Shown: one piece after another, positions 191-12,575 of the stretch
How the letters are laid out: the number at the start of each line of letters is the position of its first letter
Position numbering within the stretch: position 1 is the stretch's first letter
IMG/VR virus record: IMGVR_UViG_2778261358_000013
Source: a virus
Taxonomy: Duplodnaviria > Heunggongvirae > Uroviricota > Caudoviricetes
Length of the DNA stretch: 12,575 nt
Direction: 5' to 3' (one strand)
Notes under the pieces: generated by a model
Database searches by the model: none
Told to the model about the DNA's origin: nothing
The model's input: the letters and a program-made list of their open reading frames with translations, nothing else
Position numbers and translations under genes: made by a program

Positions 191-442
191 ATGAGCGAAG
201 TAATCATGATTGTCTCTCCCGGCAAATGGGTATCCGAAGAGCAGTTAATTGCGCTGAAAGGAATAAAAAAAGGTACGTTAAAAAAGGCCCGGGAAAAATC
301 GTTTATGGAAGGAAGGGAATATAAGCATGTCGCTCATGACGGTATGCCATGGGATAACAGTCCATGCTTTTACAACCTGGAAGAAATTGATCGCTGGATT
401 GAGCGCCAGGCATCTGCAAGACCAAGACGTCATCTTGCTTGA
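191..442 (+). CDS. Putative excisionase / small DNA-binding protein (Xis-like)
   Basis: 83-aa ORF immediately upstream of and co-oriented with the integrase (stop 440-442, int ATG at 462 or 477). Small basic protein typical of prophage Xis-like genes. No strong SD before ATG 191; function is by position only. Confidence 0.5.
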   Translation: MSEVIMIVSPGKWVSEEQLIALKGIKKGTLKKAREKSFMEGREYKHVAHDGMPWDNSPCFYNLEEIDRWIERQASARPRRHLA

Positions 443-461
443 CTAAAAGCAACACGAACCA

Positions 462-1757
462 ATGAGAGAAGCTGAAATGAAATATCCGACAGGCGTGGAA
501 AACCATGGAGGGAAATTACGTATCTGGTTTGTTTATAAAGGTGTAAGAGTCCGGGAAAATCTTGGGGTTCCTGACACAGCAAAAAACAGGCGCATTGCAG
601 GTGAGCTACGCGCCTCTGTTTGTTACGCAATAAAAACTGGCGCTTTCGACTATGCAAAACAGTTTCCCGCCTCACACAATCTGGAAAAATTTGGTGAGGC
701 CCGACAAGATTTAACCATAAAAGAACTGGCTGAAAAATTTCTGGCACTGAAAGAAACTGAAGTCGCAAAAACGTCACTCAACACGTACCGTGCCGTCATC
801 AAAAATATTCTGAGCATAATCGGTGAAAAAAATCTTGCATCATCGATTAATAAAGAAAAATTGCTGGCGGTACGTAAAGAGTTACTGACTGGATACCAGA
901 TCCCCAAAAGTAACTATATTGTTACACAACCCGGGAGATCGGCTGTTACCGTAAATAATTACATGACAAATCTTTACGCCGTGTTCCAGTTTGGTGTTGA
1001 TAACGGTTATCTGGCAGACAATCCATTTAAGGGGATCTCACCATTAAAGGAGTCGAGAACCATCCCGGATCCACTTTCGCGGGAGGAGTTTATCCGCCTT
1101 ATTGACGCGTGCAGAAATCAGCAAGCCAAAAATTTATGGTGTGTTTCCGTTTATACTGGGATTCGCCCTGGTGAACTCTGTGCGCTTGGATGGGAAGATA
1201 TAGATCTGAAAAATGGAACAATGATAATCAGAAGAAATCTGGCAAAAGACCGTTTTACAGTACCAAAAACACAGGCGGGAACCAATCGTGTGATTCACCT
1301 TATTAAGCCCGCAATCGACGCTCTCCGGAGTCAGATGGCACTAACGAGACTGAGCAAAGAGCATATCATCGATGTTCACCTCAGAGAATTCGGCAGAACA
1401 GAGAAACAAAAATGTACCTTTGTTTTTCAACCTGAAGTGTCAGCGAAAGTAAAAAATTATGGTGACCATTTTACCGTTGACTCAATAAGGCAGATGTGGG
1501 ACGCAGCGGTAAAGCGTGCCGGAATCCGCCATCGCAAATCGTATCAGTCGAGACACACTTATGCCTGCTGGTCGTTAACAGCAGGAGCTAACCCGGCATT
1601 CATTGCAAACCAGATGGGCCATGCAGATGCGCAAATGGTGTTTCAGGTGTACGGGAAATGGATGTCAGAAAATAATAATGCGCAGGTAACGCTGTTAAAT
1701 ACACAGTTAAGCGAGTTTGCCCCAACCATGCCCCATAACGAAGCGATGAAAAGTTAA
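462..1757 (+). CDS. Phage tyrosine integrase (site-specific recombinase)
   Basis: 431-aa ORF. C-terminal catalytic region has the tyrosine-recombinase signature (..SRHTYACWSL..GAN..IANQMGHADAQMVFQVYGKW.. giving the R, H-x-x-R and Y residues). An alternative start at ATG 477 (MKYPTG...) is possible. Confidence 0.85.
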   Translation: MREAEMKYPTGVENHGGKLRIWFVYKGVRVRENLGVPDTAKNRRIAGELRASVCYAIKTGAFDYAKQFPASHNLEKFGEARQDLTIKELAEKFLALKETEVAKTSLNTYRAVIKNILSIIGEKNLASSINKEKLLAVRKELLTGYQIPKSNYIVTQPGRSAVTVNNYMTNLYAVFQFGVDNGYLADNPFKGISPLKESRTIPDPLSREEFIRLIDACRNQQAKNLWCVSVYTGIRPGELCALGWEDIDLKNGTMIIRRNLAKDRFTVPKTQAGTNRVIHLIKPAIDALRSQMALTRLSKEHIIDVHLREFGRTEKQKCTFVFQPEVSAKVKNYGDHFTVDSIRQMWDAAVKRAGIRHRKSYQSRHTYACWSLTAGANPAFIANQMGHADAQMVFQVYGKWMSENNNAQVTLLNTQLSEFAPTMPHNEAMKS

Positions 1758-1944
1758 TTTTTTATTTATCAATTAGTTAGATTGAATGACTCTTGAAATC
1801 CATAAATTCAAGCGCAGTGCCCAGCCATCCCGATACTGCTGCTTTCACCAAATCCTTAGTGCTTCTTTCATGTTTTTCTATTGTCATAATGGTTATCTCT
1901 AAAAAAGAGGTAAGATGCGTACTACTTACTCGCCGTTATTGGTA

Positions 1945-2964
1945 TTATTCAGAAAAAGTGAGCAAGACTTTGCAGCAATGTTTTTGATCCTGTTCAAATA
2001 AACTAATGGCATCAGCAACATGCTGGAAATCAAACGTATGGGTAATTAATTTTTCTGGTTTAATTAACCCTTTACTTAACCAGTCGATAACAACCGGAAA
2101 TTTATTTGCATTTAAGCGTGAAGAGAAAATAGAGAGTTCTTTTCCGGTAATTCCTTGCTGAATCACTTCAGACGGTTCACTGGAGAAGCCCATCAATACA
2201 ATACGTGCCGCTGGAGAAGCCAGCGTTACGGCCTCTTTCAGGATAGAAGGATGACAAGCCGCATCGATAATTAATGTCGGCTTGATGCCTTTTTCAGCGA
2301 AAATCTCGCCAAGCGGTGTCTGGCTGTTATTAATCGCCCAGTCTGCCCCGCTCTCTTTCGCTTTTTCCAGTCGTTCATCAATGCGATCGGCAACAATCAC
2401 ATTTTTAACGTTATAGACGCCTTTTAATACCTGAACGATCGTCAGGCCGATTGGACCGGCACCATAAACCAGAACGGTATCATTTTCAGTCGGTTGACCA
2501 TGACCGGTAACGTTAGCCGCAATGGTAAAAGGTTCGATCATCACCGCATATTGATCGGCCACTGCTTCAGGAATTTTCCACGCATTTTTTGCCGGAACCA
2601 CGGCATATTCACTGAAACCACCGTCAGCGTGCACACCTAATACAGCAAGTGTCGTACAAACGTTCGGCTTACCTATAGAGCACGGATAGCAATGCCCACA
2701 GCTGACCACCGGATCGACAGCAACGCGTTCACCGACTCTGGCGCTTTCCACACCTTCACCCACCGCATCAATGACGCCAAAGAATTCATGACCAATGACG
2801 CGCGGATATTTCGCAAAAGGATTATGCCCACGGTAAATATGGCTATCTGAACCACAAATTCCGGCAAGTTTCACTTTTACTCGTACTTCACCCGCTGACG
2901 GGGTGGGTATTTCACGTTCGATAATCGACAGTTGATTCGGTTTTTCAATTAAAATGCTTTTCAT
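1945..2964 (-). CDS. rspB: Zn-dependent alcohol/sugar dehydrogenase, starvation-sensing protein RspB
   Basis: Translation matches my memory of E. coli RspB (MKSILIEKPNQLSIIEREIPTPSAGEVRVKVKLAGICGSDSHIYRG...; zinc motifs GHEFFG and CGHCYPC). Start set at ATG 2962-2964 with SD AGGAG 7 nt upstream, not the longer track ORF start at 2988. Lies 11 nt downstream of the rspA stop, operon-like. Confidence 0.85.
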   Translation of the reverse strand: MKSILIEKPNQLSIIEREIPTPSAGEVRVKVKLAGICGSDSHIYRGHNPFAKYPRVIGHEFFGVIDAVGEGVESARVGERVAVDPVVSCGHCYPCSIGKPNVCTTLAVLGVHADGGFSEYAVVPAKNAWKIPEAVADQYAVMIEPFTIAANVTGHGQPTENDTVLVYGAGPIGLTIVQVLKGVYNVKNVIVADRIDERLEKAKESGADWAINNSQTPLGEIFAEKGIKPTLIIDAACHPSILKEAVTLASPAARIVLMGFSSEPSEVIQQGITGKELSIFSSRLNANKFPVVIDWLSKGLIKPEKLITHTFDFQHVADAISLFEQDQKHCCKVLLTFSE

Positions 2965-2975
2965 TACCTTACTCC

Positions 2976-4189
2976 TTACCAGTTCCACAGCGTGCCATCT
3001 TCCAGACGTGCGACTGGCAGATAAGCAGGTTCATAGGGATATTTCGCCGCCAGCTTTTCATCGAATTCGATGCCAAGACCCGGTTTGTCTCCCGGATGCA
3101 TATAGCCGTTATCGAAAGTCCAGTTGTGCGGGAAGACTTCGAGCATTTGTTCGGAATAACCCATGTACTCCTGGACACCGAAATTGGGGACCCACAGATC
3201 AAAGTGCAGCGCCGCAGCCATGCAGACTGGTGACAAATCGGAAGGACCGTGTGAGCCAGTACGTACCTGATACAGCGAAGCAAAATCGGCAATCCGGCGC
3301 ATACCGGTAATTCCGCCTGCATGGGTCAGCGTGGTGCGGATATAATCGATGAGTTGCTCTTCAATCAGTTGTTTGCAGTCCCAGATGCTGTTGAAGACTT
3401 CACCCACTGCGATGGGTGTGACGGTATGTTGGCGAATGAGACGGAAGCATTCCTGGTTTTCCGCAGGCGTCGGGTCTTCCATCCAGAACATGCGATAATC
3501 TTCAATGCTTTTACCAAAGCGCGCCGCTTCAATAGGCGTTAAGCGATGGTACATGTCATGCAGCAAATGTTCATTAAAACCAAACTTGTTACGTACCGCG
3601 TCAAACAATTTCGGCATGAAATCGAGGTATTTCTCCGTCGACCACAGCTGCTCTTCCGGCCACTGTCCTTTGGTTGCGGGTTCATAAGCCAGACCTTTAC
3701 CTTTCGACATGCCGTAGGTGGTTTTCATACCAGGGATTCCGCACTGCACGCGGATGGCTTTGAATCCCAGCTCCTGATGACGGGCATAATCATCCAGAGC
3801 TTCATCAATACTGTGACCGGTGGTATGGCAATAAACCATCACCCTTCACGAGACGCGCCGCCGAGTAACTGGTAAAGCGGCATGTTGGTAGCTTTGGCTT
3901 TAATATCCCACAGCGCCATATCAACCGCTGAAATGGCCGACATCGTAACCGGACCGCGACGCCAGTAAGCACCTTTATAGAAAAACTGCCAGATATCTTC
4001 GATACGGTGCGCATCGCGACCAATAAGCTGCGGACAAAGGTGATCCTGCAAATAAGAGGCCACGGAAAGCTCACGTCCATTGAGGGTGGCATCCCCAAGG
4101 CCCGTAATACCGTCCTCAGTGGTGATTTTTAATGTGACGAAATTACGCCCCGGACAGGTAACAAAAACTTCAGCCTTTACGATCTTCAT
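2976..4189 (-). pseudogene. rspA: rspA (enolase-superfamily mannonate-dehydratase-like starvation-sensing protein) interrupted by a 1-bp frameshift
   Basis: Two adjacent track ORFs (3839..4222 and 2976..3842) together read as RspA ([42 protein letters not shown]... then ...[27 protein letters not shown]...). The frame breaks at ..LLGGASREG|, where the plus strand has a ccc run at 3847-3849 and an intact gene would need one more C. Real start ATG 4187-4189 with SD AAGGA. Confidence 0.8.
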
Positions 4190-4394
4190 GTTCGATTCCT
4201 TGCATCGCTTGTCGTGATGCATGAAATCTACGCAACTGAGCTACTACCATACAAGTATAAAGATCGAAAAAAGCCGGAGTGATCACAAAAAAAGGCGTAT
4301 ATTTGCGCTGTGAATGGTTGACAAAAGATGAAATAGAATACCTTTTGTCAGCTGACACTTCCTCTTATCTTATTGATAAAATGGATTTATGTTC

Positions 4395-4721
4395 CTACGT
4401 GCGCCCCCAGCCCGCAACAATGATCAACATGCCGCAAAGCGCAATCAACGCACCCGTCCAGTCATAAAGAGTCAGTTTCACGCCATCCACAACGCGCAGC
4501 CACATCAACGCCGTGCAGACATAAACGCCACCATAAGCCGCGTAAACACGCCCACTCGCCGCTGGATGCAACGTTAACAACCAGACAAACAGCGCCAGTG
4601 AAATCCCCGCCGGAAGCAACAGCCAGATACTGGCGTTTCGTTTTAACCACAACCAGGGCAGAAAGCATCCAATAATTTCACACAGCGCAGTAGCAAAAAA
4701 TAGTAACGTTGTTTTAATCAT
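4395..4721 (-). CDS. ynfA: UPF0060-family inner membrane protein YnfA
   Basis: 108-aa hydrophobic ORF ([26 protein letters not shown]...) matching my memory of E. coli YnfA, in the conserved position between rspA and ynfB. Confidence 0.85.
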
Positions 4722-4855
4722 CTTTGTCTCTTATTGACATCATGTATAGTTATAGGGCGACATAATATCATCAATATAAACACCCTCCTGGTACGTTTTG
4801 CGTCCGCAGTGGATGGTGTAGAATCACCTTTAATCATTCATACAGGGAATGAATT

Positions 4856-5197
4856 ATGAAAATCACTCTCAGCAAACGAATCGGCCTGCTCGCTATTCTG
4901 CTGCCTTGCGCACTGGCATTGAGCACAACTGTTCATGCCGAAACTAACAAACTGGTGATTGAGTCTGGCGACAGTGCACAAAGCCGCCAGCACGCCGCTA
5001 TGGAAAAAGAGCAATGGAATGACACGCGCAATCTGCGCCAGAAAGTGAATAAACGCACTGAAAAAGAGTGGGATAAAGCCGACGCCGCTTTTGATAACCG
5101 CGATAAATGTGAGCAAAGCGCCAACATCAATGCCTACTGGGAGCCCAATACTTTGCGCTGCCTGGACCGTCGAACTGGCCGCGTTATTACCCCCTAA
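4856..5197 (+). CDS. ynfB: Secreted/periplasmic small protein YnfB (signal peptide, function unknown)
   Basis: 113-aa ORF with N-terminal signal peptide ([28 protein letters not shown]|ETN). Divergent from ynfA and directly upstream of speG, as in E. coli. Confidence 0.8.
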
Positions 5198-5231
5198 CCT
5201 GTTATTGATTTAAGGAATGTAAGGACACGTT

Positions 5232-5792
5232 ATGCCAAGCGCCCACAGTGTTAAGCTACGCCCGCTGGAGCGTGAAGATTTACGCTATGTACATCAACTC
5301 GACAACAACGCCAGTGTGATGCGTTACTGGTTTGAGGAACCCTACGAAGCCTTTGTTGAACTCTCTGATCTGTATGATAAGCATATTCACGATCAGAGCG
5401 AACGGCGCTTTGTGGTGGAATGTGACGGCGAAAAAGCCGGTCTGGTGGAGCTGGTGGAAATTAACCATGTTCATCGCCGCGCAGAATTTCAGATAATTAT
5501 CTCCCCGGAGTATCAGGGGAAAGGTCTGGCAACCCGTGCCGCCAAATTAGCAATGGACTATGGCTTTACCGTTCTCAATCTCTATAAGCTGTATCTGATC
5601 GTTGATAAAGAGAATGAAAAAGCGATTCACATTTACCGCAAGCTTGGCTTTTCGGTTGAAGGTGAATTGATGCACGAGTTCTTTATTAATGGTCAATATC
5701 GTAATGCCATTCGCATGTGTATATTCCAGCATCAGTATCTGGCAGAGCACAAAACACCGGGTCAGACTCTCCTGAAGCCGACCGCACAATAG
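5232..5792 (+). CDS. speG: Spermidine N1-acetyltransferase (GNAT family)
   Basis: 186-aa [44 protein letters not shown]... recognised as SpeG. GNAT acetyl-CoA motif region (..[18 protein letters not shown]..) present. Confidence 0.9.
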
Positions 5793-5794
5793 CA

Positions 5795-6505
5795 TTAATA
5801 ATAATCGATCGTATTTTTGATGGTGTAAACCCGTTCGACGGCGGGTTTTACTCCTTCATCAACAATGATTAGCTGACAGTCCACCGGATTAGCGTGACTG
5901 TCATATTCACAGCTCTGTTTTACATTACCAACCCGTTGATTATTCAGTAAAGTAACCGCTGTGTAATCTAATTTTTTGATCGGATCCGTTGATGGCGTGG
6001 CGCTGACAGATAATGTTTTGTCGTTACTTTTCGTGGTTTTACCCAGCGGATAACCCTGATCATCATAGCGATATTCCATCTGCATTTGTTTGCTGCTGGC
6101 TTTAATCACGAAGCCATTATCATCGGTTTCCCAACTCACCCCGGCAGAAGGTAATTCTGCTAGCTGGCATTTTCCCTGTAAACGTACTCTCTTCTCCAGC
6201 GTCTCGGCATCACGGTAATAATTGGCGTCCAGTACCAGAGCGACCACGGTATTATTTTCCAGATCCAGTAATTCGAGTGAATCAAAACAGCCTTCTTCCG
6301 ACAAAGTCCCAGAAACACGTTTCGTCACTTCACCTTGCTCATCCATTAATGTCTGAGTGAAATCTTTTACCGGACCACGCAGCGGATCAAAATCGAATTC
6401 ATTAGAGAAACTGGCCATCTCAGGGGTAAATGAAAGTGTTACCTCTGTGCGGTCACATCCTGTGAGGAATATCGCGAGTAAGCATGGTAGTAATTTGTAT
6501 TTCAC
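5795..6505 (-). CDS. ynfC: Lipoprotein YnfC (UPF0257 family)
   Basis: Convergent with speG (stops 2 nt apart). Lipobox LLAIFLTGC near the N-terminus. Start placed at GTG 6503-6505 (VKYKLLPCLL..) to give a 236-aa lipoprotein precursor; the track ORF starts 12 codons upstream at ATG 6541. Confidence 0.8.
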   Translation of the reverse strand: MKYKLLPCLLAIFLTGCDRTEVTLSFTPEMASFSNEFDFDPLRGPVKDFTQTLMDEQGEVTKRVSGTLSEEGCFDSLELLDLENNTVVALVLDANYYRDAETLEKRVRLQGKCQLAELPSAGVSWETDDNGFVIKASSKQMQMEYRYDDQGYPLGKTTKSNDKTLSVSATPSTDPIKKLDYTAVTLLNNQRVGNVKQSCEYDSHANPVDCQLIIVDEGVKPAVERVYTIKNTIDYY

Positions 6506-6609
6506 AACAGTCACCAGAGAGTAGAGATGATTCTCAATCATAGTAGCAAATACAGTACTTTACACGTTAAATGCTATGCTTAAAGAAGTTATCTTCGCGT
6601 AAGGAGCTT

Positions 6610-6918
6610 ATGATGAAACTCTCAACCTGCTGTGCCGCGCTTCTGCTCGCCCTCGCCTCACCCGTGGTACTCGCCGCGCCGGGATCCTGTGAGCGCATAC
6701 AGAGCGATATATCACAGCGCATTATCAATAATGGCGTACCCGAAAGCAGCTTCACGTTAAGTATTGTACCCAATGACCAGGTTGATCAGCCTGATTCCCA
6801 GGTCGTCGGCCATTGCGCTAATGATACGCATAAAATTCTCTATACCCGCACCACCAGCGGTAACGTCTCTGCTCCCGCGCAGTCTACCCAGGATGGCGCG
6901 CCTGCCGAACCGCAGTAA
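6610..6918 (+). CDS. ynfD: Small secreted protein YnfD (DUF1161-like)
   Basis: Start ATG 6610 (or 6613) preceded by SD AAGGAG at 6601-6606. Signal peptide MMKLSTCCAALLLALASPVVLA|AP. Assigned by sequence plus conserved position upstream of ynfE. Confidence 0.75.
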   Translation: MMKLSTCCAALLLALASPVVLAAPGSCERIQSDISQRIINNGVPESSFTLSIVPNDQVDQPDSQVVGHCANDTHKILYTRTTSGNVSAPAQSTQDGAPAEPQ

Positions 6919-6934
6919 TACATTATCGACTGAA

Positions 6935-6962
6935 CGCCGGATACGACACATCCGGCGATTTG
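6935..6962 (+). terminator. Candidate rho-independent terminator after ynfD
   Basis: Perfect 8-bp stem cgccggat (6935-6942) / atccggcg (6950-6957) with 7-nt loop acgacac, followed by ATTTG 17 nt after the ynfD stop. Confidence 0.45.
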
Positions 6963-7003
6963 AACATACAACATAATCCCACCTTATTACTCATACCCTT
7001 CTA

Positions 7004-7017
7004 TTGATATGGATTAA
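7004..7017 (+). promoter_or_regulatory. FNR-like half-palindrome TTGAT-N4-ATTAA about 100 bp upstream of ynfE
   Basis: ttgatatggattaa matches the FNR/CRP-family consensus TTGAT-N4-ATCAA with one mismatch. The ynfEFGH operon is anaerobically expressed in E. coli (established); the site assignment is inference. Confidence 0.3.
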
Positions 7018-7116
7018 TAATTCTTAACCCAAAATGGGTAGACTCCCTCTATTGTTAGCGCGCTAAATATTCAATATATAAACATTTATATAACGATAAA
7101 GAACAGGGAGTGAGTT

Positions 7117-8526
7117 ATGTCCAAAAATGACCGAATGGTGGGCATCAGCCGCAGAACACTCGTTAAATCAACCGCGATAGGTTCTCTGGCGCTGGCTGCA
7201 GGCGGTTTTTCTTTACCGTTCACCCTGCGCAGTGCAGCGGCAACGGTACAACAGGCCAGCGAAAAAGTGATCTGGGGTGCCTGTTCCGTCAACTGTGGTA
7301 GCCGCTGTGCACTTCGTCTACATGTTAAAGATAATGAAGTGACCTGGGTGGAAACTGACAATACCGGCAGCGATGAGTACGGCAACCATCAGGTACGCGC
7401 CTGTTTGCGCGGTCGCTCCATCCGCCGGCGTATTAATCATCCCGATCGCTTGAATTACCCAATGAAACGCGTGGGTACACGCGGTGAAGGCAAATTCGAA
7501 CGGATTAGCTGGGATGAAGCCCTGGATACTATCGCCAGTAGCCTGAAAAAAACCGTCGAACAATATGGCAATGAGGCTGTATATATTCAGTACTCTTCGG
7601 GGATTGTTGGCGGCAATATGACCCGCTCTTCGCCATCAGCCTCGGCGGTCAAACGCCTGATGAACTGCTACGGCGGTTCACTCAATCAGTATGGCTCCTA
7701 CAGCACCGCGCAAATTTCCTGTGCCATGCCCTACACCTACGGCAGTAATGATGGCAACAGCACCACGGATATTGAAAACAGCAAGCTGGTCGTGATGTTT
7801 GGTAACAACCCGGCAGAAACCCGCATGAGCGGCGGTGGCATCACTTATCTTCTTGAAAAAGCGCGCGAGAAATCGAACGCCAAAATGATTGTTATCGATC
7901 CGCGATATACCGATACGGCTGCTGGTCGTGAAGATGAATGGCTCCCTATTCGCCCGGGCACCGATGCCGCGCTGGTTGCGGGTATTGCCTGGGTATTGAT
8001 TAACGAAAATCTCGTTGATCAACCTTTTCTCGATAAATACTGCGTCGGCTATGACGAAAAAACCTTACCCGCAGATGCACCCAAAAATGGTCACTATAAA
8101 GCCTATATTCTTGGTGAAGGTGATGATAACACAGCGAAAACGCCGCAGTGGGCTTCGCAAATTACCGGTATCCCGGTAGACCGTATCATCAAACTGGCGC
8201 GTGAAATTGGCACAGCAAAACCCGCTTATATCTGCCAGGGCTGGGGGCCGCAACGCCAGGCAAACGGCGAACTGACTGCACGCGCTATTGCTATGTTACC
8301 TATTTTGACGGGCAATGTCGGCATCAGCGGCGGAAATAGTGGCGCGCGTGAATCGACCTATACCATTACCATAGAACGCCTGCCGGTGCTGGATAATCCG
8401 GTCAAAACGTCAATCTCCTGCTTCAGCTGGACAGATGCTATCGATCATGGTCCGCAAATGACGGCAATCCGCGACGGCGTCCGCGGCAAAGATAAACTGG
8501 ATGTGCCCATTAAGTTCATCTGGAAC
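7117..8526 (+). pseudogene. ynfE: 5-prime portion (~470 codons) of ynfE, molybdopterin oxidoreductase / DMSO-reductase-family catalytic subunit, truncated by foreign DNA
   Basis: Tat signal (MSKNDRMVGISRRTLVKSTAIGSLALAAGG...AAA) and N-terminal Cys cluster (CSVNCGSRCALRLH) typical of DmsA/YnfE-type enzymes. The homologous reading ends at ...DVPIKFIWN (codon ending 8526). The track ORF then runs 22 unrelated codons (FKDLKRLLVRVTRDLSRPEVLH) to a stop at 8593-8595. Full-length proteins of this family are about 800 aa. Confidence 0.8.
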
Positions 8527-8787
8527 TTCAAGGACTTGAAGCGGTTACTCGTTAGAGTCACGAGAGACCTTAGTAGGCCTGAGGTCCTGCATTGAGTCAA
8601 GGACTTTGTGTCATTCTTTGTGCCAGACTTGTGTCATTAGACGGGATTTCTAGACGGCTGGTCAGGACCCCGGTGGCCTCGGTCTGGACTTGAGGCGGGG
8701 CTATGGGGGAAGTCTGCTGGCTTAATGTATTAGATGGTCATTCACATTTTTCTGTCAGAAACCATCGGTCCCACTGTGAGTCCAAAC
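8527..8787 (-). repeat. Non-coding terminal-repeat-like region of the foreign segment, with T7-group-like end motifs on the minus strand
   Basis: No ORF longer than 15 codons on the minus strand. Minus strand carries CTCACAGTG-G-GACC (8767-8780) and TTCCCCCATAG (8701-8711), resembling the first ~35 nt of the T7 terminal repeat (TCTCACAGTGTACGGACCTAAAGTTCCCCCATAGGGGG, from memory). Short direct repeats tcaaggactt (8528, 8596) and gactt(t)gtgtcatt (8600, 8618). Confidence 0.4.
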
Positions 8788-8943
8788 CTAAGCTCCCAGA
8801 AGCCCACCCACAGCCTTAGACAGAGTGTCGAATACATTCACACCGAGTCGACCGGAGAGGACCATATAGAGACCCACAGAGAGGAACACGAGTTTATAGA
8901 CCAGAGTCAGGAGGGACCTTAGGTCTGCGGAAGTCATGGACAT
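8788..8943 (-). CDS. Small single-pass membrane protein (51 aa), hypothetical
   Basis: Hand-translated ORF below the track size cutoff: MSMTSADLRSLLTLVYKLVFLSVGLYMVLSGRLGVNVFDTLSKAVGGLLGA. Strong SD AGGAGG (complement of 8949-8954) 4 nt upstream of ATG 8941-8943. One hydrophobic helix (LLTLVYKLVFLSVGLYMVL). Last ORF before the terminal non-coding region. Confidence 0.45.
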   Translation of the reverse strand: MSMTSADLRSLLTLVYKLVFLSVGLYMVLSGRLGVNVFDTLSKAVGGLLGA

Positions 8944-8996
8944 AAAGCCTCCTTCGTCTATTGTACTACTGCACTAGATAACTAGTACAAAACAAA

Positions 8997-9021
8997 GGTC
9001 CAGACCATTGGTCCAGACCAT
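8997..9021. repeat. Tandem direct repeat 2 x ggtccagaccat (period 13)
   Basis: 8997-9008 and 9010-9021 are identical 12-mers separated by one T, in a 238-bp non-coding gap (8944-9181). Each copy contains the GGTC-NN-GACC palindrome. Confidence 0.6.
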
Positions 9022-9181
9022 AGTTATCATGATGATTGGAACGATTGAACGGTAGGCACTTTACATCTCACCCACTGTTCAGCTTCAGCCAGTGACCAGC
9101 ATAGCCGCTTATAGACTCTGCGTGTCATCCAGATTGTTGCTTGATATCGTCCACCCTCCACAGGCTGTATAGATGTCTTAA

Positions 9182-9421
9182 TCACAGTGACAGGCCACCA
9201 CCTGAAGTCCTGCTGATATTCAGTCCAGACTTACCCCTGCTCATGGTCTTACCTCCCTCGGTCTCATGACCTTGGGTATCGACTACAGCTTGCTGAGCGT
9301 CATCTGGAGGAGCTACAGGAGGAGCTACAGGAGGCGGGACCGAAGCCCCACCTTGAGTCCCACCACCACCTGTCAGGCCCTTGGCGATGGACCTGAAGCC
9401 TTTACTAATGCTCTTACCCAT
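9182..9421 (-). CDS. Hypothetical Gly/Pro/Ala-rich small protein (79 aa), probably disordered
   Basis: ORF begins 5 nt after the stop of the upstream 328-aa gene, with no separate SD (possible translational coupling). Contains GGGGTQGG and PPPVAPPVAPP, the latter encoded by a 12-bp tandem repeat. Low-complexity, so the coding call is tentative. Confidence 0.35.
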   Translation of the reverse strand: MGKSISKGFRSIAKGLTGGGGTQGGASVPPPVAPPVAPPDDAQQAVVDTQGHETEGGKTMSRGKSGLNISRTSGGGLSL

Positions 9422-9426
9422 TGGTC

Positions 9427-10413
9427 TTACGCTTCGGTCTTGGTGAACTTCAGGCGTTTGACTACAGGCAGGACGGCAGTAGCTGAGCCAGTGCCCATCT
9501 TGATGGTCGTAGCAGCTTCAGCGACAACGAACACTTTACCGAGGATTTCCAGAGAGTGAGACTGAGAGTCGCCATCACGTGAAAGGATGACCGTAATATT
9601 CTCGCCATCGTGACGGAAGCAACCGAAGCTAAGAGCCGTAAAACGCTTAGCCATCATGAACACGCCACGGTCTTCACCGTTGTAATACGCAATATCCGTC
9701 CCCAGCATATCGACGATAGCGTCTTCACCACCGAAGCCCTGCTTAGCAGCCAGACGGGAGAGAGCCTTGAGGTGTGACTCATGGGCGATGATACCGTAAT
9801 CAGTAACCTCAGAACCGAAAGAAGATTCGGTGTTGTCATACAGAGCATCCATGATAGCATCTGCCTTAGCGGTCAGGCTGCCAGTCAGGACCGGAAGCTC
9901 TACGGTCTTCAACAGTTTGGAGGACTCCAGAACGTCGACCATGCGAGCGTTGATGGTACGGACCACATTCTCACAGATGTTCATAGCATCCTGCTGAAGT
10001 GTGCCCTGAGTGAATCCGGTGGATGACTTGGCGTCCCAGAGCTTGGTCTGCTCAGAGATGAGAATAGCCCGCTCGATTGGTTCGACCACGATTTCTTGTC
10101 CAGACGGAACGGTCACGACTTCAGGTCGCTTACCACCACGGACAGGAACAACCACAGAGCGGTTAGCCAGAGTGTGAGCAATGATTGGAGTAGGCAGGCT
10201 ATTGCGGGTAGGCAGGACTTCTACAGGGAACGGGATGTTCTCCTGAGCGGATTTCAGAACACCATTCAGCATTGTCTTAACCAGTTTAGCCAGCTCAAAG
10301 GCGTAGACCTGAGGGTCTGCGTTAGTTGGCAATCCTTCGTTAATCTGAATGTTGTCGGTGTCGGTGATACGTACTGGCTCAATGCCGAACTGTAAAGCGT
10401 CTTTAATCGTCAT
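9427..10413 (-). CDS. Hypothetical protein (328 aa), function unknown
   Basis: Long ORF. The track start at 10422 is a TTG; the likely start is ATG 10411-10413 (MTIKDALQFG...) with SD AGGAGA 9 nt upstream. No catalytic or nucleotide-binding motif recognised by eye. Confidence 0.7.
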   Translation of the reverse strand: MTIKDALQFGIEPVRITDTDNIQINEGLPTNADPQVYAFELAKLVKTMLNGVLKSAQENIPFPVEVLPTRNSLPTPIIAHTLANRSVVVPVRGGKRPEVVTVPSGQEIVVEPIERAILISEQTKLWDAKSSTGFTQGTLQQDAMNICENVVRTINARMVDVLESSKLLKTVELPVLTGSLTAKADAIMDALYDNTESSFGSEVTDYGIIAHESHLKALSRLAAKQGFGGEDAIVDMLGTDIAYYNGEDRGVFMMAKRFTALSFGCFRHDGENITVILSRDGDSQSHSLEILGKVFVVAEAATTIKMGTGSATAVLPVVKRLKFTKTEA

Positions 10414-10488
10414 AATAATCAATCTCCTGAATTAGTTTGGATACTGTGGGTCCCGACATCAGGTCAGGACCACTTGTGTGTCTGTGTC

Positions 10489-10980
10489 TTAGAGGCTGTC
10501 CATCCAGTTGTCCGTGGACTCAATGTCAGCGACCATAGAAGCACGGGAGCGCCCAGCGGAATGGGTAGCACTGCGGAGGTGCTCACCATAGGTCCGGCGT
10601 TCAGCTTTGACCTGTTCACGGCGCTGTAGCTCTTTCTGCCACTCTGCATCAGTCATGTTCTCTTCACGCATACGCTCAGCCTGAATGCGCTGCTCTTTAG
10701 CAATACGCTCAGCTTCGGCTCGCTTGTTCTGCTGGCGGCGACCATAGGCGGTCATCAGGTCATTACTGAAGAAGTTACCAATGGTCACGCCAGCTTCAGC
10801 CAGAGCTTCCAGTAACTCCATTGCCTCGCGGCTGGTAGACGGCAGGCCTGACAGGTAGCCCGGAATGAGGGTCTTGATAGCGAGCGACAGCGGATAGGGC
10901 TGACCATCCAGACTCACAGTATTCTCGTAGAGATTGATGTCGGTGACTGACAGTTTCCAGTCTTGGTTATTGAATAACAT
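10489..10980 (-). CDS. Hypothetical protein (163 aa) with charged Arg/Glu/Gln-rich predicted helical segment
   Basis: SD AGGAG 8 nt upstream of ATG 10978-10980. Central segment QQNKRAEAERIAKEQRIQAERMREENMTDAEWQKELQRREQVKAERR is typical of a coiled coil or single alpha-helix domain. Confidence 0.65.
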   Translation of the reverse strand: MLFNNQDWKLSVTDINLYENTVSLDGQPYPLSLAIKTLIPGYLSGLPSTSREAMELLEALAEAGVTIGNFFSNDLMTAYGRRQQNKRAEAERIAKEQRIQAERMREENMTDAEWQKELQRREQVKAERRTYGEHLRSATHSAGRSRASMVADIESTDNWMDSL

Positions 10981-11079
10981 AGTAATTACTCCTCTTGAGA
11001 GTTGAGACTATCGGTCAACCACAGGCGTGTTCAGTCCTGCGGCGTCTCCCCGCATCGGTCATCTCAAAAGGTGTTTAAA

Positions 11080-11262
11080 TTAGGCAGACAGTTTCATAGA
11101 GACCAGTTGCGCTATTAGCTCGTCTCGTGATTGGTGCTGGCGGGTCTCATCTTCTGGGTCCAGACCTAGCTCCTTCAGGATGACTTCAGTCCGGTAGCCA
11201 CGGTAACGGAGAGTCATGCGACCCTCAGGTGTGCGTGGGTCGATATGTTGTTTAGTTGTCAT
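11080..11262 (-). CDS. Hypothetical small protein (60 aa)
   Basis: ATG 11260-11262 lies 2 nt after the TAA stop of the upstream 84-aa gene, with SD GAGGA 9 nt upstream. Same strand and codon style as its neighbours. Confidence 0.5.
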   Translation of the reverse strand: MTTKQHIDPRTPEGRMTLRYRGYRTEVILKELGLDPEDETRQHQSRDELIAQLVSMKLSA

Positions 11263-11264
11263 TG

Positions 11265-11519
11265 TTAGAAGTCCTCGTTAGACCAATCATCCACGTCAAA
11301 TTCACTGGTGATAGGTGCTTGGAAGTTAGGTAGACCCTCTGGTATCTCTAGAGGCAGTCGCTCGTCGATTCTCAGTGCCATCTCTTCGTATATATGCCGA
11401 AGCAGAGAAGTCAGTAAGATAGGGTCCACAGGATGCTCAGGGCCGTGTCTCTCAATGAAGCACATGGTTGTCGCTATTGACTCCATAATCAGTTCATCAG
11501 TGAGTCGCTTAGAACCCAT
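11265..11519 (-). CDS. Strongly acidic small protein (84 aa) with acidic C-terminal tail ending in Phe (...EFDVDDWSNEDF)
   Basis: The track ORF is 101 aa from ATG 11570, but the likely start is ATG 11517-11519 (MGSKRLTDELIMES...), which overlaps the last codons of the upstream 281-aa gene (sequence ctATGGGTTCTAAgcg; stop at 11509-11511) as in translational coupling. About 18 Asp/Glu against 6 Lys/Arg. Confidence 0.55.
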   Translation of the reverse strand: MGSKRLTDELIMESIATTMCFIERHGPEHPVDPILLTSLLRHIYEEMALRIDERLPLEIPEGLPNFQAPITSEFDVDDWSNEDF

Positions 11520-12354
11520 AGTCGGACCCCTTGCCCGCTGCTGCTTTCTGGGACTTTGTAGCCTTACCATTCAGGTGAGAATCCACCAGACGACGGACAA
11601 CCTTGATATTGGATGTGCGCATGTCATGAGCGATATCCTTCCAGTTATCCTTCAGCCAGTCATAACCCTTGCGTAGAATCTTGATGGTAGGCTCTTTGTC
11701 GTTAGGCTGTGGCTGTAGACGATAGTAGCCGTTGATCTCACCTTTCTTATTGAAGATGGCTCGTGGACGTCCGGTCGATAGGTCTATAGCCGTAATGCCA
11801 AACTCAGTAACACGCTTGGTGTAGAATGGGTTAGGACGACACAGGGTCTTCAGATATCCAGTCAGGACGCTAGCTGTCAGCAGCTTAGAGCTGGTCAACT
11901 TAAGGTCCAGAGCTTTAATAACCTCGGTAGGCGTGGCTCCTGACTTGGAGTCCAGCTTGGAGTCGAGGACGATAGCACCGGGCGCATAGCTGATAGCTTT
12001 AGTCTGTGCAACCTGAAGTTTCTGGGCCTGAAGTTCGAGGACCTCTTGCTCCTTCTGGCGAATATAGGCTAGGACCTTACGACGCACAGCTTTAGACTCA
12101 CGCATCCCGACTAGTAGAAGCTGGTCAGTGTTGAGGGTATAGCTTTTAACGTCCTTCCCGAAGCTTACGAAAATTTCGTAGGTCACATTTTGACCTTCCA
12201 GCTCATCCTCAATACGGGACACAAAGTCGTTATTACGGACAGGCTTCTCCCCCGCTTCTTCACGAGCCGGATTAATAACCTTGGTTAGAAAATCGTGGGA
12301 GGTCATAGACACAAGCTGGTCGAGGTTAATGATGCTAATTTCTTTGGATGACAT
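11509..12354 (-). CDS. Hypothetical protein (281 aa), function unknown
   Basis: Long ORF with SD AAGGAG 9 nt upstream of ATG 12352-12354. Lys/Arg-rich C-terminus. No motif recognised by eye. First gene of the minus-strand run visible in the window. Confidence 0.7.
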   Translation of the reverse strand: MSSKEISIINLDQLVSMTSHDFLTKVINPAREEAGEKPVRNNDFVSRIEDELEGQNVTYEIFVSFGKDVKSYTLNTDQLLLVGMRESKAVRRKVLAYIRQKEQEVLELQAQKLQVAQTKAISYAPGAIVLDSKLDSKSGATPTEVIKALDLKLTSSKLLTASVLTGYLKTLCRPNPFYTKRVTEFGITAIDLSTGRPRAIFNKKGEINGYYRLQPQPNDKEPTIKILRKGYDWLKDNWKDIAHDMRTSNIKVVRRLVDSHLNGKATKSQKAAAGKGSDYGF

Positions 12355-12496
12355 ATCGTTGTACTCCTTTTGTTATGCCTCCTGAAGTCACACCCTGAAA
12401 GCCTACTCAAGCCCCCAACGATAGGGAGACTCACAGGCAACAGGAGACATACAGAAAGACTTGAGGTAATAAGGTCGTGTGAAGACCATAGTTGAT

Positions 12497-12534
12497 AAGT
12501 AAGCGTCAACGGAGCACCGTATTGACGCTTATTT
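12497..12534. promoter_or_regulatory. Strong inverted repeat / stem-loop upstream of the 281-aa gene (candidate processing site, terminator or operator)
   Basis: Perfect 10-bp inverted repeat taagcgtcaa (12500-12509) / ttgacgctta (12522-12531) around a 12-nt centre that itself pairs cgg/ccg. Flanked by aataaataa on one side. Lies ~150 bp upstream of the 281-aa start. Confidence 0.4.
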
Positions 12535-12575
12535 ATTAGTGAGTACTACGTTCCATGGCAGGAGTTCGTCAACTC

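Follow-up and report, generated by a model that had tools for sequence, protein, structure and literature searches.

Very probable interruption of ynfE by site-specific integration of a small island of the T7-island class

The ynfE fragment and its junction with foreign DNA

The DNA analyzed here (the window) is the whole 12,575-bp contig NJZN01000065.1 of the draft assembly GCA_002460955.1, which contains the reverse complement of L023, a locus taken from this contig (the loci used for comparison are numbered with the prefix L). The window carries the 5′ part of ynfE, which encodes the catalytic subunit of an anaerobic selenate/tellurate reductase of the DmsA/YnfE subfamily, joined to an island of foreign DNA whose genes in the window are all on the minus strand, and it ends in an insertion sequence (IS); the features are listed in Table 1. 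The alignment of Escherichia coli K-12 (L002, positions 1550-9480) to window positions 598-8527 had 98.1% identity, showed a conserved gene order around ynfE, and ended exactly at 8527. An earlier reading of the window made without database searches (the sequence-only reading) held that ynfE was cut at about codon 470 by a foreign segment, and this was borne out: the match within the gene (7117-8527) comprises codons 1-470, and the frame is not restored afterwards. Alignment to the reference gene, which that reading had proposed as a check, fixed the breakpoint at 8527, to the base.

The open reading frame (ORF) at 7117-8595 on the plus strand encodes a product of 492 amino acids (aa). Its residues 1-470 have only 8 substitutions compared to K-12 YnfE (808 aa), and both the Tat motif SRRTLVK (residues 11-17) and the Cys cluster CSVNCGSRCALRLH / CSVNCGSRC can be read from the translation. 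Residues 471-492 differ from K-12 YnfE at every position and are followed by a TGA stop at 8593-8595. The top NCBIfam model was selenate_YnfE (NF041885) with 1016.6 bits, followed by YnfF with 842.5 and DmsA with 810.1. These results confirm both the earlier identification of a YnfE-like N-terminus with its two motifs and the description of 22 unrelated codons ending in a stop.

The NF041885 match spans profile positions 2-469 of 805 and scores below the full-length cut-off of 1675; because it stops at position 469, the product is regarded as truncated. The C-terminal 338 residues of YnfE are lost, including the Molydop_binding domain, which in relatives is located on a split-off 3′ ORF. Because of this loss, the truncated protein, which keeps the signal peptide and the Fe-S motif, is very probably an inactive catalytic subunit, and at that strength the earlier claim of inactivation is supported. 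The island copies other than that of the window diverge in sequence from 8545 onward, so that the 22-codon tail looks incidental. The exact 492-aa fusion product was indexed in 50 blocks of the contig collection.

The same junction was found repeatedly among complete genomes. A 501-bp probe spanning it was covered over at least 80% of its length in 133 of 5426 complete E. coli genomes, and at least the ynfE half of the probe was matched in 5282. Because it is present in these 133 genomes, the junction is not an artefact.

Recombination site and far end of the island

The attL core was located at the same position of ynfE in the 15 E. coli loci that were fetched. In 11 of the 12 relatives for which both island ends were read, attL is CATCTGGAACTTC (ending in TTC) and attR is CATCTGGAACTAC (ending in TAC); the exception, WEM25, has TAC at both ends. 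The uninterrupted attB site of K-12 is also CATCTGGAACTAC. From this difference, the T at 8528 is attributed to the island, with A as the host nucleotide, and strand exchange is therefore placed inside the 11-bp identity at 8517-8527, CATCTGGAACT, which lies within ynfE codons 466-470. Because the crossover falls in the 11 bp common to attL, attR and attB, precise excision would be expected to rebuild the wild-type ynfE gene, and the likely inactivation would in principle be reversible.

The DNA on the island side of the core has the repeats expected of an integrase substrate. In seven complete islands, the octamer TTGTGTCA occurs in two to three copies approximately 70-115 bp inside the attL end and in two copies approximately 165-175 bp inside the attR end; it is confined to these two terminal arms, and its orientation is always the same. 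As judged from the sequence, this distribution is the pattern of integrase arm-type sites, and most copies share a conserved stretch of 151 bp at the start of the island. The island integrase of the relatives, which lies outside the window, is a tyrosine recombinase (PF00589, 2.2e-14; phrog_1, 2.4e-43) and was called as a protein of 443-541 aa in every relative read through the far end. The calls of 526-541 aa probably extend into the arm because the likely start of the gene is approximately 310 bp from the core. Taken together, the sequence comparisons indicate that ynfE was cut by classical site-specific integration rather than by deletion or transposition, and that the cut is no artefact of the assembly. 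The sequence-only reading was right that the segment is foreign and missed that it is a site-specific integrative island, the excision of which would rebuild ynfE.

The far end of the island, including attR, was seen in relatives only, as the window stops before it. All 13 related E. coli loci that were read through the far end have the order 5′ ynfE fragment, island, integrase, attR, 3′ ynfE fragment (1035 bp) and ynfF, and 5 of them extend to ynfG, ynfH and dmsD. For example, WEM25 has a 1413-bp 5′ fragment of ynfE, a 6.8-kb insert, the integrase, the 1035-bp 3′ fragment, ynfF, ynfG, ynfH and dmsD, and the same order up to ynfF is present in UMNK88 and EC21Z-137. Likewise, the 7 displayed loci with the fusion product that reach the far end have the integrase followed by a ynfE 3′ ORF of 369-388 aa (Molybdopterin and Molydop_binding domains) and ynfF. 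Over window positions 9385-12498, the nearest relative, L019, differs at 1 of 3114 bp (99.97% identity). Beyond the equivalent of 12498 it has no IS; a further 2.88 kb with a 122-aa gene, the integrase and attR lead on to the ynfE 3′ part, ynfF, ynfG, ynfH, dmsD and clcB.

The alignments of all relatives to the window end at 12498, which places the cut in the island at 12498/12499. The 77 bp that follow match, at 98.7% identity, the end of a gene for a "mobile element protein" (>515 aa) in lambda-like phage records and recur in up to 41 places in an E. coli genome; with only 77 bp in the window, their assignment to the IS66 family, which rests partly on the terminal repeat, is one that we presume. 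Since this repeat interrupts the island and ends the contig, the far junction is out of view. The K-12 ynfE 3′ part, ynfF, ynfG, ynfH and dmsD had no match in window positions 8530-12575 by blastn and tblastx. The earlier statement that no remainder of ynfE and no ynfFGH follow the cut thus holds within the window and not for the genome, as the contig ends in a repeat. The absence of these genes is a property of the contig and is no evidence for a loss at the genome level. By comparison with the relatives, ynfE is interrupted and not deleted, and the further claim that the operon is inactivated as well, which that reading made subject to the operon not continuing beyond the far junction, is not supported, as the ynfE 3′ part and ynfF are kept in all 13 related loci.

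An effect of the island on the genes downstream is conceivable. Polarity on ynfFGH-dmsD is plausible because transcription from the ynfE promoter would have to cross, after the stop at 8595, approximately 6.6 kb of antisense, untranslated island, here with the IS in addition, and silencing of these genes in this way is possible. A scan for an outward sigma-70 promoter toward ynfF at attR gave nothing above chance. Before HOCl treatment of a uropathogenic strain, every S-/N-oxide reductase gene except ynfF showed low expression, which may hint at ynfE-independent expression of ynfF. In Salmonella, most of the selenate reductase activity comes from YnfE and the contribution of YnfF is small. DmsD, encoded downstream of ynfEFGH, is required for the maturation of DmsABC.

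Genes, promoters and size of the island

Table 1. Features of the ynfE locus and of the island in the window.
Feature	Position	Strand	Basis or remark
ynfE 5′ fragment: codons 1-470 and att core, with Tat signal and FS0 Cys cluster	7117..8529	+	K-12 alignment, NCBIfam
attL core CATCTGGAACTTC, 13 bp	8517..8529	.	attL/attR/attB comparison
Read-through tail: 22 island-encoded codons (FKDLKRLLVRVTRDLSRPEVLH) and TGA stop	8527..8595	+	
Island att arm adjoining the core	8530..8700	.	TTGTGTCA at 8606 and 8629; degenerate TTGTGCCA at 8618; GGACTTGA at 8532 and 8686
51-aa hydrophobic ORF, conserved, GGAGG ribosome site, outside the main operon	8788..8943	-	called in L009, L011, L013, L019, L022-L024
Terminator-like hairpin with T-run, closing the island operon	8997..9019	-	
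52-aa ORF	9027..9185	-	
79-aa protein similar to gp6.7/gp7.3, small virion proteins of T7	9182..9421	-	phrog_1320, E = 3e-11
331-aa protein, predicted HK97-fold capsid type, conserved family hallmark	9427..10422	-	AlphaFold2, Foldseek
163-aa conserved protein, just upstream of the capsid gene	10489..10980	-	faint DUF6971
Variable cargo (60-, 101- and 281-aa ORFs)	11080..12354	-	
60-aa ORF	11080..11262	-	
101-aa ORF	11265..11570	-	
281-aa protein, N-terminus resembling anti-repressor proteins	11509..12354	-	
Leader upstream of the 281-aa gene; island homology ends at 12498	12355..12498	-	
IS66-family IS end: terminal GTAAGCG and transposase C-terminus ...ELLPWNVVLTNK*	12499..12575	-	

The hallmark product of the island family, a conserved protein of 331 aa, had no match in Pfam, PHROGs, NCBIfam, PADLOC, the PDB sequences or a PDB profile search, and an exhaustive search gave 65 relatives of it. 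An AlphaFold2 model built from 36 of these had a pLDDT of 82.8 and a pTM of 0.78. When this model was searched with Foldseek, all 50 of the PDB matches listed were HK97-fold shells (encapsulins and the capsids of phi29, T5, PhiM1, Kp9 and others), and most of the named matches listed from BFVD were phage capsid or head proteins. The matches had a probability of 1.00 and E-values down to approximately 1e-9 to 1e-10, with TM-scores of just 0.27-0.48; we attribute these low scores to the mobile arms of the HK97 fold. On the evidence of the model, the 331-aa protein is a capsid-type protein of the HK97 fold. The island as a known phage or prophage was considered and rejected, as megablast against 50,697 phage records matched the IS end only, and tblastn with the 331-aa and 79-aa proteins, which looked for a known phage or prophage, found nothing.

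The genes around the capsid gene differ in how constant they are. The 163-aa gene co-occurs with the capsid gene in every copy, and its product is possibly a scaffold. In the interval of the variable cargo, other copies have KilA-N, Rha-like or HNH-like genes, and the leader upstream of the 281-aa gene is 99% identical among islands that are otherwise diverged. The match of the 79-aa protein to PF11653 (VirionAssem_T7) had an E-value of 0.0055 and was below the cut-off. A 340-bp stretch (9046-9384) comprising most of the gp6.7-like gene and most of the 52-aa ORF is absent from the otherwise near-identical L019, so that this module appears to be either dispensable or recently exchanged. The 51-aa ORF, which has an upstream palindrome TTGTACTA...TAGTACAA at approximately 8962-8992, had no family match, including in NCBIfam and PADLOC. 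Given its position beyond the operon terminator, it is perhaps the one gene of the island whose expression needs no helper phage.

Promoter-like sites of phage type were found in the relatives. The pattern TCACTATAGGG occurs 1-5 times (usually at least twice) in every copy that was read across the interval separating the integrase from the operon, and there it is always on the coding strand; examples are ACCCTAAACTATCACTATAGGGAGAC, GGACTTGATTATCACTATAGGGGAAC and ATTATACCCTCACTATAGGGAAGG. These sites equal what we take to be the T7 late-promoter consensus CTCACTATAGGGAGA from approximately -7 to +6, and some have what is presumably a T3-type ACCCTC upstream. In L019, the 14-mer pattern was observed twice as compared to no occurrence in 100 shuffles, and its promoters lie 311-765 bp beyond the point at which the island of the window is cut. 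The IS66-family element is inserted at the equivalent of approximately position 9857 of L019, which is 144 bp upstream of the 281-aa gene and 311 bp downstream of the nearer promoter. Because it is inserted between them, the operon of the window is cut off from the phage-type promoters. An RNA polymerase gene was not recognized in any of the islands.

Variation among these promoters was also observed. Some islands (L006, L011, L013, L020-L024) have tandem promoters of differing upstream specificity, T3-like ACCCTCACTATAGGG and AACTATCACTATAGGG, and such mixed variants may allow a response to more than one helper polymerase. A distant island that is also located in ynfE, with a capsid protein that is 44% identical, carries CACACTATAG-type sites instead and is, judged by its sequence divergence, apparently from another species. 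A different IS66-family copy (L025, 3009-5321) is present in the equivalent interval of a distant ynfE island, again apparently in another species; the two insertions in the same interval could be a coincidence or could reflect a preferred target.

In terms of size, the island is 6506-6819 bp long in the 12 loci for which both cores were read (L001, L005-L012, L014, L019, L020), and its cargo differs among them (KilA-N, Rha-like, anti-repressor-like and HNH-like genes). Because the length stays in this narrow range despite the mosaic cargo, a packaging constraint on size is suggested. More diverged islands are also located in ynfE or ynfE-like genes of other organisms. For example, L028 (Logan SRR29836470, 6661 bp) has the core TTCAATCTGAACTA at both ends and is inside a dmsA/ynfE-like gene of another organism; its sequence stops 16-20 bp beyond either att site, which would be expected of a sample that contains a mixture of occupied sites and empty or excised forms. 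In L003 (the 3′ end of a tRNA gene) and in L027 (a different chromosomal neighbourhood), the capsid gene and its 160-aa partner occur with other integrases and at other sites, from which the capsid and integration modules appear to be exchangeable. The element-sized Logan contigs were considered as excised circles and rejected, since L003 (6794 bp) is at a tRNA gene, L028 is integrated with flanking DNA, and the ends overlap in neither. A scan of IMG/VR gave 4 matches, none of which was tied to virus particles, and no evidence of packaging.

Two further observations concern the host part of the contig. Relative to K-12, rspA (window 2976-4222) lacks 1 bp in a C-run at approximately 3841, which divides the gene into two ORFs; either rspA is a true pseudogene or the homopolymer was misread in sequencing. 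An intact tyrosine integrase of 431 aa (462-1757, within window 191-1757) adjoins ynfP/rspB. Before it comes an ORF of 83 aa, and DUF1233 is found in the equivalent ORF of related loci; by their sequence, the integrase and this ORF mark the end of a Qin-type prophage. At the position of this integrase, K-12 has only the intQ pseudogene.

Interpretation and alternatives

We consider it very likely that ynfE was interrupted by the site-specific integration of a tyrosine-integrase island of approximately 6.5-6.8 kb that belongs to the class named "T7 islands". There is strong support that the island recombined with ynfE through CATCTGGAACT and left attL beside the 5′ half of the gene, with attR beside the 3′ half and ynfFGH-dmsD in intact copies, and that the later IS66-family insertion at 12498/12499 put the integrase, attR and the rest of ynfE out of view. 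In the proposed mechanism, the island would be silent until infection by a T7-type phage, when the RNA polymerase of the phage would fire the T7-type promoters that lie between operon and integrase gene. The products would be a regulator, a scaffold-like protein, the HK97 capsid protein and the gp6.7-like protein, and the island would thereby act as a satellite or parasite of T7-like phages. The promoters for a phage polymerase, the capsid gene and the narrow range of sizes lend indirect support to a satellite role. The tandem promoters may double as an origin of replication of the T7 type; in T7, two promoters in tandem form the primary origin. The island might be packaged singly into a small shell that it encodes itself, or else in the form of multimers, and 6 units would amount to approximately 39.6 kb, which is near the size of the T7 genome; this last step is speculation.

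Several points weigh against this explanation. The window does not reach the integrase, attR, the T7-type promoters or the 3′ part of ynfE, which are deduced from relatives, no T7-type promoter was found by a search of the window itself, and the source genome is represented by one contig of a draft assembly. The TM-scores of the 331-aa model are below 0.5, though all 50 of its listed PDB matches have the HK97 fold. Portal, terminase and replication genes were not recognized by Pfam or PHROGs in the island of the window and in four other cargo variants, and the searchable literature yielded no tests of excision, helper dependence, packaging or capsid formation.

The assignment to a class rests on the features of the relatives. 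The name "T7 islands" is that of Chen and Schneider (Nucleic Acids Res 2006, 34:1133). Almost no follow-up on this class was found in the searchable literature since 2006. These authors reportedly proposed T7 islands as satellite phages that depend on a T7-like polymerase, and the class is reportedly characterized by a small size, direct repeats at the ends, and promoters that have a tyrosine integrase on their upstream side and a few phage-related ORFs on the other. The relatives share with the class, so described, a small size in enterobacteria, T7-type promoters without a polymerase gene, direct-repeat ends and mosaic copies. The relatives indeed have the integrase upstream of the promoters, few ORFs downstream of them, terminal repeats and a small size, and on these sequence features the island is a member of the T7 islands. 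The copy in the window differs in that it is cut by the IS66-family element, with its promoter and integrase half outside the window. Most ORFs of T7 islands reportedly received no function in the original description; here, in contrast, the conserved 331-aa ORF is assigned a predicted HK97 capsid fold.

The ynfE target has been described before. The TIGER study (Mageeney et al. 2020, PMC7192596) lists the ynfE islands Eco892.7.ynfE and Sfl13.8.ynfE as candidates for regulated gene integrity. According to its entries, these elements resemble ours in being 7-8 kb long, in occurring in E. coli and Shigella flexneri, and in disrupting the Molybdopterin domain of ynfE without restoration. The accessible part of the TIGER text does not describe island content or T7-type promoters, and the kinship with the family of the window is suggested by site and size. 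Beyond TIGER and the T7-island citation, literature searches returned no described satellite of the T7-island type. The interruption of ynfE is thus of an already catalogued kind, and this copy is one more ordinary example; what is new here is the placing of the crossover to the base, the arm sites, the disruption by the IS66-family element, the assignment of a capsid fold, the constraint on size and the ynfE-type target of diverged islands.

Among other mobile elements, the phage satellites P4, PICI, PLE and PICMI, as far as their descriptions were available, share with the island the form of an integrase-bearing element that depends on a helper phage, a dependence that is putative here. In the same descriptions, cf-PICIs encode their own HK97 capsid protein, and PICMIs are similarly small and parasitise virulent phages. 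In contrast to cf-PICIs, PICIs and P4, AlpA, a primase-replicase, a small terminase, a portal, a protease and a connector were not recognized here by Pfam and PHROGs, and the HK97-fold protein alone of the gene content of capsid-forming PICIs was found in the island of the window and in the four other cargo variants. Compared to PICIs and P4, the island would also be controlled by promoters for a helper polymerase and not by de-repression, and its genome is approximately half the size of P4. The metagenomic "twilight-zone" mini HK97 genomes of 5-11.6 kb that were reported in 2025 (bioRxiv 10.1101/2025.06.18.659913) are similar by description, as genomes of approximately 7 kb can have an HK97-fold shell, regulators and an integrase and lack genes for a terminase, a portal or a tail. 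The shell proteins of these genomes are near encapsulins, which also top the Foldseek list for the 331-aa protein. In contrast to the islands studied here, they are environmental contigs without defined hosts or integration sites.

A more specific role can be put forward tentatively. It is possible that the island is a self-encapsidating mini-satellite of virulent phages of the T7 group that is switched on, and perhaps replicated, from its tandem promoters by the helper polymerase, as at the primary origin of T7, and that forms a small HK97 shell of its own for approximately 6.6 kb. If so, no smaller dsDNA satellite that encodes a capsid would be known in E. coli, its excision upon infection would rebuild ynfE at the same time, and the copy in the window would be a disabled specimen in which the IS66-family element separates the promoters from the capsid operon.

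Alternatively, the island could be a fixed anti-phage decoy in which the capsid-like protein and the cargo poison the assembly of T7-type capsids or abort the infection, with ynfE as a tolerated site. We regard this as rather unlikely. Promoters that respond to the phage enzyme only, a variable cargo that includes HNH-like, KilA-N and anti-repressor-like genes, and the lack of recognized packaging and replication genes would all be consistent with a decoy. However, the length is held at 6.5-6.8 kb despite the mosaic cargo, the intact integrase, arms and cores and the spread across genera point to active mobility, and no meaningful matches were obtained with PADLOC. The roles of decoy and satellite may be compatible.

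Another explanation is that the cut marks the edge of a real deletion, in which the remainder of the island and the 3′ part of ynfE, possibly together with ynfFGH, were lost through the action of the IS66-family element or through recombination of one IS copy with another. The far junction is indeed unseen in a contig that ends in an IS found in up to 41 places per genome, and the frameshifted rspA hints at a genome that accumulates pseudogenes. Even so, a deletion is improbable, because an IS repeat is the ordinary cause of a contig break in a short-read assembly, the far part is kept in every one of the 13 related loci, and there is no sign of a deletion in the window.

It is also quite improbable that ynfE is subject to regulated gene integrity, such that the cell would switch the gene off and on by integration and excision of the island. 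The proposal has its merits: excision would restore the wild-type sequence, and in our analysis and in TIGER, which, in its accessible part, lists the islands as candidates, independent islands of one integrase clade recurrently disrupt the same conserved ynfE domain without restoring it. Nevertheless, nothing ties excision to host physiology, the paralogue YnfF follows, and the promoters indicate phage infection and not anaerobiosis as the trigger.

The two remaining explanations are negligible. Random transposition, for example by a Mu-like phage, was considered because TGAAGCGG at 8537 could be such an end, as it resembles what we take to be the reverse complement of the Mu right end; it was rejected, as every copy is inserted at the same site to the base, with a core repeat of 11-13 bp, arm repeats and a tyrosine integrase, and without a transposase. 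An assembly chimera, with ynfE intact in the real genome, would be in keeping with a draft short-read source and is contradicted by the identical junction, core and arm in the 133 complete genomes and in many independent assemblies.

Site-specific integration of a T7 island into ynfE thus remains our explanation. The HK97-fold assignment, the gp6.7-like protein and the size range of 6.5-6.8 kb are additions to the T7-island class, and they make its satellite proposal directly testable with common laboratory phages. An occupied ynfE site should be annotated as a gene split by an island and not as a deletion of the operon. Since approximately 2.5% of the complete E. coli genomes carry the island, any polarity that it exerts could matter for physiology.

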